64,000 nt of DNA from Burkholderiaceae bacterium. Its GTDB lineage: Bacteria > Patescibacteriota > Saccharimonadia > Saccharimonadales > AQU-01. Below are positions 3,475 through 41,825 of the stretch, piece by piece. A program made the translations under genes and the position numbers. Numbering within the stretch: position 1 is the stretch's first letter; the number at the start of each line of letters is the position of its first letter. The notes beneath the pieces are model-generated. The model was not told the DNA's origin. It did no database searches and saw nothing but the letters and a program-made list of their open reading frames with translations. Where the stretch lies: NCBI GenBank assembly GCA_043788365.1, contig JAYVTZ010000002.1, forward strand, positions 51,208 through 115,207, given 5' to 3'.

Positions 3475-3522
3475 CCCCAGTGAGACAGCGTCGGGCTACG
3501 CGCGGGCTAACTCACGATGTCG
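3475..3522 (-). repeat. tRNA-Lys 3' fragment (T-arm plus acceptor 3' strand) with a 23-nt insertion in the T-loop
   Basis: Plus strand ccccagtgagac[agcgtcgggctacgcgcgggcta]actcacgatgtcg compared with the intact gene gcccagtgagacttgaactcacgacaccc. Same sense as the tRNA. Confidence 0.6.
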
Positions 3523-3550
3523 TTTAGTTCAAGCCAGTGAATCAACCATT

Positions 3551-3581
3551 TAAAAAGACCCATCAAAGATGAGTCTTTTTA
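3551..3581 (-). terminator. Rho-independent terminator after tRNA-Lys
   Basis: Minus-sense AAAAAGACTCATC-TTT-GATGGGTCTTTTT, an 11-bp stem with one G-U, followed by a U-run. The arms are identical to the hairpin after tRNA-fMet at 38084..38111. Confidence 0.7.
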
Positions 3582-3583
3582 AA

Positions 3584-3660
3584 TGGAGGGCCCAGTGAGA
3601 CTTGAACTCACGACACCCTGCTTAAAAGGCAGGTGCTCTAACCAGCTGAGCTATGGGCCC
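3584..3660 (-). tRNA. tRNA-Lys (anticodon UUU), CCA encoded
   Basis: Cloverleaf read by eye: GGGCCCA TA GCTC AGCTGGTTA GAGC A CCTGC CTTTTAA GCAGG GTGTC GTGAG TTCAAGT CTCAC TGGGCCC T CCA. Confidence 0.9.
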
Positions 3661-3765
3661 GAATTTGGCATGTACTTCTCAGATTTTCCTTAAACGTTTA
3701 GTCTTTGCTGGTTTTTGGTTAGAGCACCAAGGTGCACATAATTTATTTTGTCCGCCTCGGCGGAC

Positions 3766-3785
3766 GCCAGCTGAGCTATGGGTTC
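3766..3785 (-). repeat. tRNA-Lys 5' fragment (acceptor 5' strand plus D-arm start)
   Basis: Sense GAACCCATAGCTCAGCTGGC compared with GGGCCCATAGCTCAGCTGGT (17/20). It is followed by hairpin GTCCGCCGAGGCGGAC. An inverted 13-mer tggttagagcacc lies at about 3716..3728. Confidence 0.55.
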
Positions 3786-24674: not shown

Positions 24675-25604
24675 CTAGCGCTCATGGCTATCGAGTGCCA
24701 AATTATCGGTTTTTACGATCAGCGAGAACTGTTTATCGACTGATAGGCTACGTTCTGGTGGCAGCGTTTTAGCACCATGAACCAACCGCTCAATCTGCTT
24801 TTTGTCAATATTTGTCACGCCTTGGCCGCGCAACCAGCTAATCATGACCTCACGCGCCACCACATGTGGCAACATAATGAACCAGTGTCGATCAAGTTTG
24901 TTGGCTGACGGATGAATATCCAAATAATTCTCTAGTTCTTTGTTAATTTTGACATTTAATTCCGACAACTTATCGATATGTTCAAACAGCTGACTCTTAT
25001 CCTCTGCCGAAAACTTAGCCACTAGGTTGTGCCTTATGTAATTGCGTAGATACTTAGTGTCCAGATTGGTACTATCTTCACGCCACTGTATATTATTGCT
25101 CGTAGCGTAGTTAGTGATATCTTCCTTGGTCTTGCTAAGCAGTGGCCTTATCAATTGATTGCCAGATTTTAATGATGTAAGGCCACGTCTACCAGTACCC
25201 CGTACAATATTAATAATTGCCGTTTCGAGCATATCGTCTTGGTGATGGGCAGTAATGATGGCTTTAGCACCTGCAGTCTTCCGAACCTGTTCTAAAAATT
25301 GATAACGCGCATGCCTAGCTTTTTGTTCACTGGCATCTGTTCCCAAATAACCCTTGTCATAAACAAACGGTAGACCATATCCATTTGCCATCTTTTGTAC
25401 AAATAACCGATCTTCGCCGGAATCTATTCTAATACCGTGGTCAAAGTGAGCTACAATCAGTTTTAGTTTTCGGTGTTTAGAACTACGGCTTAGAATATCC
25501 AGCAGAGACATCGAGTCAATTCCGCCCGATGCCGCAACAACGTAAACTCCCGGTTCAATCTTGACATCCATAGATTTGCTAACATGAGCCCTGCTTAACA
25601 CCAT
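24675..25604 (-). CDS. tilS: tRNA(Ile)-lysidine synthase TilS
   Basis: PP-loop ASGGIDSMSLL and AHHQDDMLET. Alternative start MDVKIEP at 25571. Confidence 0.85.
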   Translation of the reverse strand: MVLSRAHVSKSMDVKIEPGVYVVAASGGIDSMSLLDILSRSSKHRKLKLIVAHFDHGIRIDSGEDRLFVQKMANGYGLPFVYDKGYLGTDASEQKARHARYQFLEQVRKTAGAKAIITAHHQDDMLETAIINIVRGTGRRGLTSLKSGNQLIRPLLSKTKEDITNYATSNNIQWREDSTNLDTKYLRNYIRHNLVAKFSAEDKSQLFEHIDKLSELNVKINKELENYLDIHPSANKLDRHWFIMLPHVVAREVMISWLRGQGVTNIDKKQIERLVHGAKTLPPERSLSVDKQFSLIVKTDNLALDSHER

Positions 25605-25608
25605 ACTT

Positions 25609-25650
25609 TGGTAGCGGCGACAAGATTTGAACTTGGTGACCTTGAGGCCT
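25609..25650 (-). repeat. tRNA-Met 3' fragment (variable loop, T-arm, acceptor, CCA)
   Basis: tggtagcggcgacaagatttgaactt (26 nt) is identical to 25761..25786; the next ~16 nt are diverged. Confidence 0.75.
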
Positions 25651-25760
25651 ATATTGCTTCAAGCCATGAACGACTTTTTTGATAAGGCCTGTCGTTCTTG
25701 GTTTCTTCATATAATTTTTGTTAATCATAATAATTATGAGTCCTACTTAACGCACAATTT

Positions 25761-25837
25761 TGGTAGCGGCGACAAGATTTGAACTTGTGACCCCAGGCTT
25801 ATGAGTCCTGTGCTCTAACCAACTGAGCTACGCCGCC
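25761..25837 (-). tRNA. tRNA-Met (anticodon CAU, elongator-like), CCA encoded
   Basis: GGCGGCG TA GCTC AGTTGGTTA GAGC A CAGGA CTCATAA GCCTG GGGTC ACAAG TTCAAAT CTTGT CGCCGCT A CCA. Resembles the E. coli elongator Met tRNA in the D-arm and variable region. 31:39 is an A-G mismatch. Confidence 0.85.
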
Positions 25838-25857
25838 CCCAAAATTGTGTGTTAAGT

Positions 25858-25888
25858 GTCGCTCTTTAACCAACTGAGCTACGCCGCC
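25858..25888 (-). repeat. tRNA-Met 5' fragment (acceptor 5' strand plus D-arm)
   Basis: Sense GGCGGCGTAGCTCAGTTGGTTAAAGAGCGAC compared with the intact GGCGGCGTAGCTCAGTTGGTTAGAGCAC. Also shares the TTTGGGG leader. Confidence 0.75.
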
Positions 25889-26001
25889 CCCAAAGTATAA
25901 TGTCAACGTTCCAAACAACAGGGGTAAATATAGCATATTGGGCTGAATAAATCAAAAGAGTCCTCGGACTTACCATAGGGACTCTTTTGATAATAGTAGA
26001 T

Positions 26002-26100
26002 TTATAGGGCTGCAATGACTGAATCGAGCTCTAATATTTTACTGTCTGAGGTCGCAGCTAGCTCGTAAGCTAGGCCACCTAAGTTACTAAATAATGACAC
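26002..26100 (-). CDS. Candidate 32-aa peptide gene (MSLFSNLGGLAYELAATSDSKILELDSVIAAL)
   Basis: GTG start 6 nt after AGGAGG. The stop is followed by a hairpin AAAAGAGTCC...GGACTCTTTT. Own translation; below the track cut-off. Confidence 0.35.
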   Translation of the reverse strand: MSLFSNLGGLAYELAATSDSKILELDSVIAAL

Positions 26101-26368
26101 TTATCCCCTCCTGTTTTTTTATTTTGTTGTTTTTGTTTGTGATCACTAACAACTATTATTATACATAACTTTGTGTTTTTGTCAAGCTAATGCTTGTCTT
26201 AAATGCACTAGTGTGGTTTAATTACTCCTGCAGGTCCTTAGCGGTTCTAGTGCGATGAAAAACTTTCGAAAACTTCCTTGATTCAAGGCTCAGGTTCGGT
26301 AAGATTGATTAGCAAAAAGACGTTTTAAGCGGTCGAACTTGCGCTTTAAGTAATCAAGGAAACATTAC

Positions 26369-26668
26369 ATGTACAAATTGTTTGTAGGTGGATTGCCATT
26401 TAGCACCACTGATGAAGAAATGGCTCAATTATTTAGCCAGCACGGTACAGTTGCTTCTGCTGTTGTGGTCAAAGACCGCGACACTGGTCGTAGCAAAGGT
26501 TTTGGTTTCGTCGAGTTTGAAAACGATGACGAAGGCAAAGCTGCCGAAAAAGCTCTTAATGGATCTGACATGGGTGGCCGTTCAATTACGGTTAACCAAG
26601 CTCGTCCTAAAGAGGATCGTCCACGCCGAGACTTCGGTGGTGGCGGTGATCGCCAACGCAGCTGGTAA
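26369..26668 (+). CDS. RRM-type RNA-binding protein
   Basis: RNP-2 LFVGGL, RNP-1 KGFGFVEF and a Gly/Arg-rich tail. Confidence 0.9.
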   Translation: MYKLFVGGLPFSTTDEEMAQLFSQHGTVASAVVVKDRDTGRSKGFGFVEFENDDEGKAAEKALNGSDMGGRSITVNQARPKEDRPRRDFGGGGDRQRSW

Positions 26669-37848: not shown

Positions 37849-38003
37849 CTAATCTGTTCTTTTGTCTTGAATGTTCGATGTCTTGTTCGATTTCGAGAGA
37901 GGATTCTCGAAATCGGGAGGAGATGGCTTGGTGGGGTAACTAGAACTGACGGTCAAACTTGTTTTGCCGGCGGTTCAGTTACCCAACCATCACACATCGA
38001 CGA

Positions 38004-38078
38004 CGCGGGGTGGAGCAGCGGCAGCTCGCGTGGCTCATAACCACGAGGTCCCAGGTTCGAGTCCTGGCCCCGCTACCA
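38004..38078 (+). tRNA. Initiator tRNA-fMet (anticodon CAU), CCA encoded
   Basis: CGCGGGG TG GAGC AGCGGCA GCTC G CGTGG CTCATAA CCACG AGGTC CCAGG TTCGAGT CCTGG CCCCGCT A CCA. Has a 1:72 mismatch and A11:U24. Close to the E. coli initiator tRNA. Confidence 0.85.
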
Positions 38079-38111: not shown

Positions 38112-38230
38112 CTTTGGTACAAAGTCCGGCTCGGTTCTGGGACTCGACAGTCTAAGCTGGCGATAGTCCCATAGTTCGCTAATCCCCCGTCCGCTTTAGC
38201 GGATAAACGGGCGAATTATACCTTAGTATT

Positions 38231-38246
38231 CCTGGCCCCCTACCAA
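38231..38246 (+). repeat. Partial copy of the tRNA-fMet 3' end
   Basis: CCTGGCCCC-CTACCAA compared with CCTGGCCCCGCTACCAA at 38063..38079. Confidence 0.55.
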
Positions 38247-41403: not shown

Positions 41404-41461
41404 TCTGTTATAATCGTTTTGTTATCGTTGAAAATGAGAAGAATATTTGGGTCCGCACAAA

Positions 41462-41503
41462 GTCTCAGTCGTTAAAGCAGTCGGCTCATAATCGACTGAT
41501 TAA
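41462..41503 (+). repeat. Partial copy (D-arm plus anticodon arm) of the downstream tRNA(CAU)
   Basis: GTCTCAGTCGTTAAAGCAGTCGGCTCATAAtcgaCTGATTAA compared with GCTCAGTGGTTAGAGCAGTCGGCTCATAACTGATTGG. Confidence 0.7.
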
Positions 41504-41606
41504 GGAGATTATATGCAGAGCCCAAGGAAACCTTCTGATAAAATAATAGTTTCCCTGGAGCGAAGCTATATAACTGATCATTAAAAATACATTGGTAAAT
41601 TATGGA

Positions 41607-41682
41607 GGGGGTATAGCTCAGTGGTTAGAGCAGTCGGCTCATAACTGATTGGTCCTTGGTTCAAATCCAAGTACCCCCACCA
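41607..41682 (+). tRNA. tRNA with CAU anticodon, Ile2 (lysidine)-like, CCA encoded
   Basis: GGGGGTA TA GCTC AGTGGTTA GAGC A GTCGG CTCATAA CTGAT TGGTC CTTGG TTCAAAT CCAAG TACCCCC A CCA. The Ile2 assignment rests on resemblance to ileX-type tRNAs and is tentative. Confidence 0.8.
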
Positions 41683-41700
41683 TAATTTCCCAATATTGTT

Positions 41701-41735
41701 CTTGGTTCATCTGTCAGCCGACGGACCAAGTACCC
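41701..41735 (+). repeat. Partial copy (T-arm plus acceptor 3' strand) of tRNA(CAU) with a 16-nt T-loop insertion
   Basis: CTTGGTTCA[tctgtcagccgacgga]CCAAGTACCC. Confidence 0.7.
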
Positions 41736-41825
41736 AATAGCAAAGGTTCTGTTTTATCAATATGCTTATGCTGTTATTTGTTATATTATTTACTTGAAAC
41801 AACATCTAAAAAGTAAAAGGTAAAA

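Follow-up and report, generated by a model that had tools for sequence, protein, structure and literature searches.

Saccharibacteria have genomes of roughly 1 Mb and usually encode one gene per tRNA. In bacterial rRNA operons, leader-trailer helices are RNase III processing stems; in archaea, a box C/D RNA lies in the intron of pre-tRNA-Trp; and the small structured insertion elements of bacteria include Correia elements, Rickettsia palindromic elements (RPEs), and IS200/IS605-derived PATEs. One study describes rRNA leader-trailer helices as thought to organize folding and to give a double-stranded entry site for processing (PMC10250234). The tRNA-Met locus that we characterize here, part of a 64,000-nucleotide stretch of DNA (the window) from a Saccharibacteria (CPR) genome, is similar in that complementary flanks lengthen the terminal helix of the mature RNA, with compensatory changes maintaining the pairing, but it differs in that the flanks enclose a single tRNA and that pairing starts at C74. 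To our knowledge, bacterial tRNA genes seldom have a leader-trailer duplex of this length. With attL/attR fragments the locus shares a direct repeat of a tRNA 3' end downstream of an intact gene and a variable region beside the tRNA; unlike such fragments, it has a matching 5' fragment, a colinear nest, neither an element nor an integrase between the repeats, and a repeat that runs on into the trailer.

As a review sets out, archaeal tRNA genes may be disrupted by non-canonical introns, split, or permuted (PMC4090602). As in those systems, a functional RNA here lies inside a tRNA gene, insertions fall in the anticodon stem, at about 37/38, and in the T-loop, and related insertion sequences are common to different tRNA genes; the differences are the bacterial host, the lack of a bulge-helix-bulge, the decay of the outer exons in the window, and an intact duplicate that is always present. 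The group I introns described in Patescibacteria (PMC13011429) are from the same phylum and likewise interrupt tRNA anticodon loops without being caught by standard annotation, whereas the insertion found here (element E) is about 93 nt long and has neither a group I core nor a match to RF00028. A term search of that paper found no mention of tRNA-Met, pseudogenes, nesting, or duplication, and literature searches on nested tRNA genes, CPR MITEs, leaderless promoters of Saccharibacteria, and tRNA leader-trailer helices yielded no description of the arrangement, which is new as far as could be found.

Table 1. Features of the nested tRNA-Met locus, in 5' to 3' order of the minus strand
Feature	Positions in the window	Strand	Remarks
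Promoter-like site, whole locus	25927..25955	-	TTGATT, 17 nt, TATATT; TG before the -10 hexamer
Outer leader strand L', TTGACATTATACTTTGGG	25889..25906	-	Pairs with outer trailer R'; I3
Outer 5' fragment	25858..25888	-	Acceptor 5' strand, D-arm, start of anticodon stem
Inner leader strand L, ACTTAACACACAATTTTGGG	25838..25857	-	5' arm of extended acceptor helix; I1
tRNA-Met(CAU), intact, elongator type	25761..25837	-	77 nt, CCA encoded; ARAGORN
Inner trailer strand R, CCA + AAATTGTGCGTTAAGT	25745..25763	-	3' arm of extended acceptor helix; I1
Outer copy restart, AGGACTCATAA	25734..25744	-	Anticodon stem 5' strand and loop
Element E	25646..25738	-	~93 nt, two hairpins; covariance model R1
Outer 3' part	25609..25650	-	Anticodon stem 3' strand, variable loop, T-arm, acceptor 3' strand, CCA
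Outer trailer R' (CCA + AAGTATGGTGTTAAGC), then AGGGCTCATG	25583..25611	-	D1, I3
tilS (tRNA-Ile lysidine synthetase)	24675..25571	-	ORF; PF01171 homologues; context gene outside the nest

A sequence-only reading of the window had divided this locus into seven pieces on the minus strand, and a check of the sequence recovered all of them in place (Table 1). ARAGORN calls a tRNA-Met(CAT) at 25837..25761; this gene scores 68.5 bits against the Rfam tRNA model RF00005, is 100% identical to the single tRNA-Met of relatives L001 to L007, and is presumably the active copy. Around it runs a second copy in the colinear, nested order that had been claimed, with positions 1-28 upstream and 29-77 downstream of the intact gene. 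The outer 5' fragment comprises tRNA positions 1-28 with two 1-nt insertions and matches the inner gene exactly over positions 1-22 (22/22); together with the TTTGGGGG leader it forms repeat D2, in which 25894..25864 and 25843..25813 are identical at 30 of 31 positions. On the other side, AGGACTCATAA at 25744..25734 is an 11/11 copy of positions 29-39 (repeat D5), and a piece homologous to it also follows the trailer in three other contigs (L083, L086, and L202). The outer 3' part, which has one C inserted in its T-arm, shares 27 exact nucleotides with the inner gene up to the CCA end, or 29 when two trailer bases are counted. It belongs to direct repeat D1 (52 nt, 87%), and copies of the inner trailer and of the anticodon piece occur after it as well; AGGGCTCATG, which is anticodon-loop-like, is paralogous to 25734..25744. 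The junctions of the inner unit read GAC/ACTTAAC and GTTAAGT/AGGAC, and the outer copy is colinear across the inner unit with neither loss nor gain of bases, so that no duplicated bases, and hence no target-site duplication, are found at these junctions. No ORF of at least 60 amino acids lies within the nest. In the window, the D-stem region of the outer copy has gained an A and a G and its T-stem a C, so that this copy is, as judged from its sequence, dead.

The inverted repeat that bounds the intact gene (I1; 27-nt arms at 25857..25831 and 25771..25745, 89% complementary) does prolong the acceptor helix, as the sequence-only reading had proposed: leader positions -2 to -20 pair with C74 to +16 at 18 of 19 positions, with a mismatch only at -13. 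The outer leader (25906..25889) and trailer (25611..25593) pair in the same manner at 17/17 positions, including three G-U pairs (I3). Among the 176 distinct tRNAs whose loci we compared, the mode of leader-trailer pairing is 8 of 20 positions, with 6 to 8 in most genes, and pairing at 16 or more positions is confined to five tRNAs, all five of them at nested loci; a chance origin of the pairing is excluded. The 123-nt inner unit has a predicted folding energy of -50.5 kcal/mol (z = -5.9), with the leader-trailer helix present in its minimum free energy structure, and the 331-nt region folds at -115.8 kcal/mol (z = -8.3). Un-nested genes also have such a helix (14/16 in L211, 12/16 in L003/L011). 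Cognate leaders and trailers form 13.75 of 16 pairs compared with 9.9 of 16 for non-cognate combinations, and across eight units most positions from -8 to -16 show three or four pair types, demonstrating compensatory changes in the inverted repeat. The arms are wholly different between the Met and the Ile2-type nests. The proposal that the repeat marks the boundary of a mobile cassette does not hold up, since un-nested genes have such a helix, the outer copy has its own, and the arms covary. Taken together, comparison across these genes indicates that the inverted repeat forms the leader-trailer helix native to this family of tRNA-Met genes and is no transposon end, and that the helix is under selection and maintained through compensatory changes. 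A transposon or MITE with terminal inverted repeats was rejected on the same grounds, as the arms covary and have no transposon-end-like sequence conservation; in the loci compared, the helix-flanked unit was found at the cognate tRNA locus only and not at unrelated sites. A long leader-trailer helix on a bacterial tRNA gene leads to a concrete hypothesis on pre-tRNA processing in CPR bacteria.

The atgctatatttacccctgttgtt block around the -10 hexamer of the promoter-like site is conserved upstream of tRNA-Met in L001/L003 and L211. No terminator-like site was found in 25450-26400, hence none between the promoter and tilS, which lies immediately downstream of the nest; the adjacency is repeated in L211 and L163. 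In the collections searched, L211 is the closest TilS relative (64% identity), no closer relative is present, and the exact 298-aa TilS has no record. At the same site, L211 shares the upstream hairpin and the promoter block with the window, and between these and tilS it has a single tRNA-Met that nothing interrupts; the nearest relative thus carries a counterpart of the outer copy without any interruption, the empty site that the first reading had proposed to look for. The L211 leader is 76% identical to the outer leader of the window and its trailer is 69% identical to the outer trailer, while within the window the inner and outer leaders are 60% identical and the trailers 75% identical.

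The arrangement is not a one-off, in agreement with the sequence-only reading. The tRNA-Met nest recurs in three other Saccharibacteria (L086, L083, and L202) with junctions that look homologous at position about 28/29, and analogous nests are found at Ile2-like and fMet genes, these CAU-anticodon loci being window positions 41450-41740, L187, L157, and L140. The breakpoints of the outer copies are 28/29 in the window, 30/31 in L086, 27/29 in L083, 28/29 in L202, 46/47 in L187, and 43/43 in L140. In all four Met nests, the left junction consists of GAGC.., a linker of 2 to 4 nt (purine-rich in L083 and L202), and a TTAAC-type leader, and the right junction of ..GTTAAG followed by (A/C)GGACTCATA. 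As we read its sequence, L202 contains at least two nested layers, and the window nest is probably layered as well. Because it recurs in other species and in other CAU-anticodon tRNAs, the gene-in-gene layout is, on this comparative sequence evidence, real and heritable, and neither an accident nor an assembly error. Partial self-copies at the other three tRNA loci of the window, which had also been reported, were found again: they are strong at the Lys gene and at 41607 (a 16-mer at each) and weak at 38004, where a 10-mer extends to 17/18 in our reading of the alignment.

The approximately 83 nt that had been set aside as AT-rich filler turn out to be a conserved structured element of 93 nt, which we call E. 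It interrupts the outer copy in its anticodon loop, between the loop and the 3' stem (the exact position is ambiguous, from 35/36 to 38/39), and each of its hairpins carries a tandem G.A internal loop. Covariance model R1, which was built without the window copy, scores that copy at 60.0 bits (E-value, 9e-12) over all 92 model positions. Across the family, 92.2% of cells are paired, compared with 76.4% in shuffles; the covariation score is 0.448 versus 0.152 when shuffled, with none of 500 shuffles reaching the observed value, and it falls to 0.08 or less when partners are slid by 1 to 3 columns. The score against R1 identifies the window filler as a member of this widespread structured family, and we recovered at least 120 matches in metagenome contigs. 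No Rfam 15 family corresponds to it, either at the gathering threshold (window, L076, L049, L086, and L083) or in an E-value search (L161). In many cases, E lies 10 to 12 nt upstream of the start codons of varied, often translation-related genes, whose N-termini look like those of Frr, CysRS, EF-Tu, release factors, ArgRS, LepA, HisRS, Ndk, L25, TilS, and pilin-like proteins; it also occurs in the T-loops of mere 3' tRNA fragments and just upstream of many unrelated ORFs. Each of the nine copies located in anticodon loops has an intact tRNA nearby, at a distance of a few hundred nucleotides at most.

The sites of E are A/T-rich (TATAAT boxes, CAU anticodon loops, and T-loops), and its ends are imperfectly similar. 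Neither a transposase linked to E nor a clear target duplication at E was seen. The copies are old and divergent. E thus resembles the Correia elements, RPEs, and PATEs in its length of ~95 nt, its A/T-rich sites, its imperfectly similar ends, and its presence inside RNA-gene copies and right before ORFs; it is unlike them in having two separate hairpins, whose G.A loops are conserved and whose stems covary strongly, not one TIR-TIR hairpin. We rejected a viral origin (0 matches in IMG/VR viral contigs), and also a coding mini-ORF, for which an ATG in TATATG and an upstream AAGGAG in some copies might have spoken, as, in our reading of the copies, the hairpin length varies and breaks the frame, and as the stems covary. 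A role as a riboswitch-like regulator of one pathway is unsupported given the diversity of the downstream genes. E deserves study in its own right.

The reading that we favor, at a probability of about 0.55, is a DNA-level gene-in-gene replacement in which a live tRNA-Met unit lies inside a decaying resident unit. The inner unit, composed of leader strand, tRNA, and trailer strand, sits at 28/29 of the older copy, in the 5' strand of its anticodon stem, and the older copy would be the resident gene of this chromosomal site, now a pseudogene with indels in the D- and T-stems and E in its anticodon loop. The single promoter at 25955..25927 would transcribe the whole locus, probably into tilS. 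Within such a transcript, the 19-bp leader-trailer duplex would define and insulate the inner pre-tRNA by lengthening its acceptor stem to about 26 bp, and this clamp would keep the inner 3' strand off the outer 5' fragment, which is identical. If it acts like the leader-trailer helices of rRNA, the clamp would probably also provide a first, double-strand-specific cleavage site, used ahead of RNase P and of trimming at the 3' end. Gene conversion seems to keep the inner and outer tRNA segments partly homogenized, and the nest, which can be layered (in L202 and probably in the window), could in principle collapse through recombination between the direct repeats. As for its origin, we favor a scenario in which an allele of the complete unit that had diverged beforehand was inserted by recombination, with the invariant tRNA sequence supplying the homology. 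The combination of diverged flanks (60% and 75%) with identical tRNA segments (22/22 and 27/27) would be expected if separately diverged working units were joined fairly recently. Likewise, the restriction of E-type insertions to redundant copies is as expected if insertion into the sole essential copy of a tRNA is lethal.

If this gene-in-gene replacement is correct, the three CAU-anticodon tRNA genes have repeatedly come to consist of a live gene within its own dead copy, which would show how a single-copy gene that is essential can be interrupted and exchanged while its function is kept. These loci would also single out the tRNA genes of these organisms as places where recombination is frequent and where small elements can insert safely. 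For annotation, the consequence is that tRNA finders report the inner gene only and the relics are missed.

Several observations fit gene-in-gene replacement less well. The outer copy of L086 looks like a perfectly good tRNA, with its own acceptor pairs (GGCAAGG/CCTTGCT), T-arm, CCA, and terminator, which a purely "dead" reading of outer copies does not predict. The leaders and trailers, which are very short sequences, give mixed signals on the source of the inner unit, which could be foreign or have arisen locally as a paralogue; each of the two window trailers is most closely related to the other (75%). Copies of the 5' part alone occur in L117 and L107, and such one-sided copies imply that partial tandem duplication does occur at loci of this kind. 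It is also surprising that non-functional relics should persist across species in genomes of roughly 1 Mb, and the outer RNA or E could have a function.

Two other accounts of the nest at the DNA level are possible, albeit less probable. In the first, which we hold only tentatively, the replacement tRNA gene and E together would form a self-compensating selfish block that spreads between Saccharibacteria by homologous recombination. Such a block would need no enzyme of its own, being flanked by the halves of the universally conserved tRNA that it interrupts, and it would home into any intact cognate tRNA gene, its own inner copy included, producing Russian-doll layers. This would explain why the outermost leader and trailer in the window are of the resident type, why the junctions of four species are alike, why L202 is layered, and why the distribution among relatives is patchy. 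Natural uptake of DNA by Saccharibacteria, which we assume may occur, would help the block to spread. In a bolder variant, the outer halves and E may act as a functional two-piece tRNA-like RNA after excision of the inner tRNA.

The second account, which we consider doubtful, is that two independent partial tandem duplications placed a copy of the leader and tRNA positions 1-28 upstream and a copy of positions 29-77 and the trailer downstream, that E was inserted later into the redundant downstream piece, and that the nesting results from breakpoints that happen to coincide. Tandem units are compatible with the repeat spacings of 51 and 152 nt, and the close relationship of the two window trailers and the one-sided 5' copies in L117 and L107 are consistent with local copying. 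Copies of the 3' end are also common, as 53 of 176 tRNAs have one downstream, 44 of these 53 without a 5' fragment, and L163 has two serial 3' fragments with no 5' fragment. Nonetheless, the 5' copy stops precisely, or almost so, at the start of the 3' copy in the four Met nests and in L187 and L140, and local copying predicts initially identical leaders, whereas the leaders are 60% identical beside a tRNA segment that matches at 22/22 positions. A simple tandem duplication, for its part, fails to explain the colinear nested order, as the sequence-only reading had noted.

It is improbable that the locus records integrase scars, that is, attL/attR duplications left by mostly deleted mobile elements. 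The 3' direct repeat from T-arm to CCA (D1) is the classic signature of such events, Saccharibacteria often have such 3' copies about 145 to 177 nt downstream, in some cases several in series, and the stretch between tRNA-Met and tilS is variable, with one or two cupredoxin genes there in relatives. However, classic att duplication explains neither the 5' fragment nor the colinear nesting, in which the parts 1-28 and 29-77 flank the intact gene, and on this point the first reading stands. The D1 repeats are separated by only 125 nt, consisting of the trailer and E and holding no ORF, and the repeat takes in about 25 nt of trailer. Pfam searches of 10 ORFs near the other tRNA loci found no integrase or phage domains, and E is absent from the viral contigs scanned.

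A further alternative places the rearrangement at the RNA level: the outer tRNA would be functional, and the inner pre-tRNA and E would be lost from it as intervening sequences by cleavage and ligation, giving two tRNAs or a two-piece tRNA-like RNA. Folding of the entire region is predicted to give a perfect Russian doll in which the outer acceptor stem, D-arm, and T-arm all form; the outer halves of L086 retain compensatory acceptor and T-stem pairs, along with the CCA and the terminator; E lies at or beside the canonical intron position 37/38; and outer segments covary with the inner gene of each genome, for example, in the CCGG anticodon stem of L083. Against this, the outer copy of the window has D- and T-stem indels, that of L083 ends in ATTA without CCA, and the junctions lack a bulge-helix-bulge, the predicted helix being continuous with single mismatches and no 3-nt bulges. 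A group I core is lacking, an intact gene adjoins each of the tRNA copies that bear E, E also occupies the T-loops of 3' fragments and sites before unrelated ORFs, and the introns described in PMC13011429 are group I introns only, at other positions and in other tRNAs. A tRNA-containing intervening sequence, one of the explanations first offered for the locus, is therefore very unlikely. A group I intron, considered both for the 215 nt in the outer copy of L086 and for the window filler, was rejected: RF00028 gave no match at either locus up to an E-value of 10, nor at the gathering score, E, at 93 nt, falls short of the approximately 200 nt or more of a group I intron, and the exons that splicing would need intact carry indels in the window and are split by the inner unit.

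An assembly artefact, in the form of a collapsed or chimeric repeat, is scarcely credible: although Logan contigs L008 and L009 (SRR23617268) each end within the inner tRNA, near position 28-30, these two independent contigs reproduce the left and right halves of the locus base for base and so support the architecture, the exact repeats (22 and 29 nt) fall below the k-mer lengths generally used in assembly, the same arrangement is present in other species that were assembled independently, and a tRNA common to co-occurring relatives can by itself explain such breaks in the graph.

The tRNA-Met locus lies in a saccharibacterial genome (TM7, CPR/Patescibacteria), and the best 80 relatives of the RRM protein encoded beside it come nearly all from Saccharibacteria MAGs. 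All of the pieces listed for this locus in the sequence-only reading are present (the tRNA call, direct repeats D2 and D5, inverted repeat I1, and the outer 3' part; see table), and no terminator was predicted between the promoter-like site and tilS. In the inner unit, which comprises the intact gene with its own leader and trailer, 18 of 19 leader positions from -2 to -20 pair with C74 to +16, far beyond chance; the mode among 176 distinct tRNAs in our collected loci was 8/20, and pairing of at least 16/20 was found in only 5 of the 176, all five of them nested loci. The predicted fold of this unit has an energy of -50.5 kcal/mol (z = -5.9), and the 331-nt region as a whole is predicted to fold in Russian-doll fashion (-115.8 kcal/mol; z = -8.3).

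The outer copy, the broken tRNA-Met around the inner unit, has flanks of its own. The inner trailer and the anticodon piece behind it are present as previously described but are not confined to the inner copy, since a 52-nt direct repeat (D1; 87% identity) carries them again after the outer 3' fragment, which is followed by its own trailer version, AAGTATGGTGTTAAGC-AGGGCTCATG. A separate leader, TTGACATTATACTTTGGG, directly precedes the outer 5' fragment and pairs with the outer trailer at 17 of 17 positions, three of them G-U (inverted repeat I3). Because the outer copy has its own pairing leader and trailer, it was formerly a whole leader-tRNA-trailer unit of the same design as the inner one. 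Its damage is light, amounting to single-nucleotide insertions (two near the D-stem and one in the T-stem) plus substitutions in positions 39 to 50, and its tRNA segments are identical to the inner gene over 22/22 and 27/27 positions, whereas the inner and outer leaders are only 60% identical and the trailers 75%. Among the trailers compared, these two are most similar to each other.

The inverted repeat had been taken for a cassette boundary, but the same helix flanks un-nested genes (14/16 pairs in locus L211; 12/16 in L003/L011) and its arms covary. Across eight tRNA-Met units (window inner, window outer, L086, L083, L202, L003, L011, and L211), cognate leaders and trailers pair at 13.75 of 16 variable positions versus 9.9 for non-cognate combinations, and most positions from -8 to -16 show three or four Watson-Crick pair types. 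The leader-trailer helix is a native, selected trait of this tRNA-Met gene family, with the leader-trailer helix of rRNA operons as its nearest analogue. It probably serves the inner gene: the transcript would also hold a perfect copy of the first 22 nt of the tRNA, and a 19-bp clamp below the acceptor stem would force the right pairing. The analogy with rRNA suggests that it may also offer a double-strand cut site ahead of RNase P and 3' trimming.

Close relatives (loci L001 to L007) encode an RRM protein and a tRNA identical to those of the window, with a single tRNA-Met, no relics, and a partly decayed helix (15 to 16 of 20). What lies between tRNA-Met and tilS varies, with one or two cupredoxin-like genes on the opposite strand in these loci (e.g., L001 2539-3385) versus window positions 25572-25760. 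An empty counterpart of the outer copy, as sought by the sequence-only reading, was found in L211, the locus with the nearest TilS relative (64% identity), where the upstream hairpin and promoter block seen in the window are followed by one uninterrupted tRNA-Met at the corresponding site and then tilS; its leader and trailer are 76% and 69% identical to the window outer pair. The window outer copy is thereby identified as the gene resident at the site.

The tRNA-Met nest also occurs in three other species (L086, L083, and L202), with outer 5' and 3' parts meeting at tRNA positions 30|31, 27|29, and 28|29, respectively; the junctions look homologous. By our reading, the 5' fragments of L202 form two or more layers, accompanied by 3' fragments of different allelic types. 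The outer halves in L086 retain compensatory acceptor and T-stem pairs of their own, as well as CCA and a terminator. Analogous arrangements exist at the other CAU tRNAs, Ile2-like and fMet (see table), in which a 5' copy (positions 1 to ~46) with a structured element, E, in its anticodon loop precedes a full gene, often followed by a 3' relic starting near positions 44 to 49. The full Ile2-like gene of the window and of L187 sits between the arms of a separate, unrelated inverted repeat, and the layout of the window nest is matched in L187, L117, and L157. In the variable hairpin, the E copies from the Ile2-type nests of the window and L117 share 83% identity, a value beyond the 99th percentile for all pairs, so this nest type was inherited rather than reinvented.

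Features of the tRNA-Met locus, related arrangements, and other tRNA genes (window positions unless a locus is named)
Feature	Position	Strand	Remark
Divergent RRM-protein gene	26369..26668	+	one flank of tRNA-Met locus
Promoter-like site, extended -10 hexamer	25955..25927	-	predicted
5' copy, 31 nt (D2)	upstream of intact tRNA-Met	-	identical TTTGGGGG leader
Intact tRNA-Met(CAU)	25837..25761	-	
Inverted-repeat arms, 27 nt each (I1)	around intact tRNA-Met		89% complementary
11/11 copy of tRNA positions 29-39 (D5)	directly after inner trailer	-	
Outer 3' part		-	27 nt exact match to intact gene, CCA at end
tilS-ftsH-murJ	other flank of tRNA-Met locus	-	same strand as nest
E copy	25646-25738	-	
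E copy	41486-41576	+	
Other E copies	L086 1809-1901; L076 7253-7347 (-); L049 3772-3863 (-); L078 2131-2226; loci L091-L210		
Ile2-like arrangements	41450-41740; L187; L157; L117	+ (window)	
Window 5' copy of tRNA(CAT)	anticodon arm 41464-41491	+	decayed, positions ~11-44; arm intact; E in anticodon loop
Window intact tRNA	41607-41682	+	16-bp leader-trailer helix around gene
Window T-arm relic	41701-41735	+	15-nt insert in T-loop, 41710-41724
fMet arrangements	L107; L140		
tRNA-Lys	3584-3660 (region 3476-3782)	-	
tRNA-Lys upstream direct copy, 16 nt	3782..3767	-	positions 4-19, then GC hairpin
tRNA-Lys upstream inverted copy, 13 nt	3728..3716		D-arm region
tRNA-Lys T-arm relic	3517..3509 + 3486..3476	-	downstream of terminator; ~23 nt inserted in T-loop
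tRNA-fMet	38004-38078		
tRNA-fMet 3' relic, weak	38230-38245	+	TCCTGGCCCC-CTACCA; ~150 nt downstream, behind terminator

What had been described as AT-rich filler in the outer tRNA-Met copy proved, by covariation and a covariance-model match, to be a copy of E, which is placed in the anticodon loop between CTCATA(A) and the 3' strand of the stem; a model built without the filler recovers it at full length (60.0 bits; E value, 9e-12). The ~93-nt element folds into two hairpins that both contain a tandem G.A internal loop; its consensus is (T)ATAAT-TCGAGCGrTyAGCGAGAAT-TATATGmCGAGCCCAAG-[hairpin]-CCTGGCGCGAAGCTATA. In 42 copies, 92.2% of cells are paired versus 76.4% in shuffles, and the covariation score is 0.448 versus 0.152 (0 of 500 shuffles reach 0.448; at most 0.08 with partners slid); the stems are old and covarying, not recent copies. 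A search pattern based on four copies gave at least 120 matching stretches in metagenome contigs and no match in viral contigs. The covariance model finds exactly two significant copies in the window, both in CAU-tRNA nests. In the L086 and L202 nests, too, E is found at the anticodon loop of the outer copy; the model did not detect it in the L083 nest. Each of the nine anticodon-loop copies found is accompanied by an intact tRNA no more than a few hundred nucleotides away, and the ten T-loop copies with a 3' flank repeating upstream sequence belong to 3' fragments that follow an intact gene. Among the copies found, E-type insertions were seen only in redundant tRNA copies, as expected from survivorship when an element lands in the tRNA-like loops of genes that are both essential and single-copy. 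Many copies follow a (TGn)TATAAT box, at times directly behind an upstream terminator hairpin, and end 10 to 12 nt before the start codon of a gene. This spacing holds for 14 of the 31 copies that have an ORF starting no more than 40 nt downstream, and the genes concerned are diverse and often related to translation. E would fit either an insertion element favoring TATAAT-like sites or a cis-acting 5' element.

The tRNA-Met locus is most likely, at the DNA level, a live gene unit within a decaying resident unit, because the empty site exists in L211, the breakpoints are exactly colinear in the four Met nests, L187, and L140, the flanks have diverged while the tRNA is conserved, and decay of the outer copy is light. 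The two units would have diverged as working genes and then been joined; local duplication followed by drift would fit the contrast between flanks and tRNA less well. Tentatively, and with the odds against it, a block composed of E and the replacement tRNA may pass from one lineage to another by homologous recombination, using the tRNA halves on either side, as a self-compensating selfish insertion. Two independent partial tandem duplications plus insertion of E are likewise unlikely: one-sided copies and serial 3' fragments do exist, and the mutual closeness of the window's trailers speaks for them, but the breakpoints match and the leaders have diverged.

Scars of integrase activity would account for the common 3' copies lying 145 to 177 nt downstream of Saccharibacteria tRNA-Met and fMet genes. 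They leave the 5' relic and the nest unaccounted for, however; the nest holds no element and no ORF of 60 aa or more, and a Pfam test of ORFs near the other tRNA loci found no integrase, making this origin decidedly improbable. Splicing at the RNA level to yield a functional outer tRNA is at least as doubtful; the predicted Russian-doll fold and the L086 outer halves, with their compensatory pairs and CCA, would suit it, but the window outer copy carries indels, that of L083 has no CCA, BHB and group I features are absent, and E occurs in many non-tRNA contexts. Misassembly is very unlikely, since two Logan contigs from SRR23617268 (L008 and L009) match the left and right halves of the nest exactly and the assembly is therefore not at fault.

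L008 ends and L009 starts within the inner tRNA, near positions 28 to 30 (window ~25808-25810), the same tRNA position as the nest junction; this may simply reflect graph branching with co-occurring relatives, or could point to alternative alleles within the population. The literature searched yielded no account of tRNA genes nested in colinear order in disrupted copies of themselves, nor of E, which also matches no family in Rfam 15. Pseudogene relics, leader-trailer helices, and small insertion elements are all of kinds already known; their combination and recurrence are new.

Relics also surround other tRNA genes. Those of the window tRNA-Lys have non-complementary breakpoints (19|48), and many Saccharibacteria fMet genes carry a 3' relic like that of the window fMet, often with a T-loop insert of ~65 to 100 nt (L018, L026, L027, L072, and L140). 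Overall, 53 of 176 tRNAs have their own last 16 to 27 nt (T-loop to CCA) copied downstream (loci L011-L090, e.g., L014, L021, L043, L054, L076, L078, L084, and L163), typically 145 to 177 nt away for tRNA-Met and fMet. Some of these 3'-end copies are serial, and behind each stands a terminator resembling that of the gene; terminator stems usually begin with CCA itself (CCA...TGG). Two further conserved relic-linked blocks, GCAGACTA..GTCAAAT-hairpin-CAGCATAGCGAGG-hairpin-CCGAGCATT just before GTTCAAATC and GTGAACTCAGA-hairpin-TCTTC just before GGTC, lie in the T-loop of 3' relics (L021, L043, L054, L084, and L202) or before the variable loop (L014 and L086). In many Saccharibacteria tRNA genes (e.g., L025, L026, L035, L067, and L078; window 37960-38003), the leader runs up to position 1 with the ending ..GACCGTCGGTTCTGACGA or ..CGACGA, in front of which GTCAAACTTGTTTTGC often stands, and the 15-nt T-loop insert of the window T-arm relic resembles the reverse complement of this leader motif.
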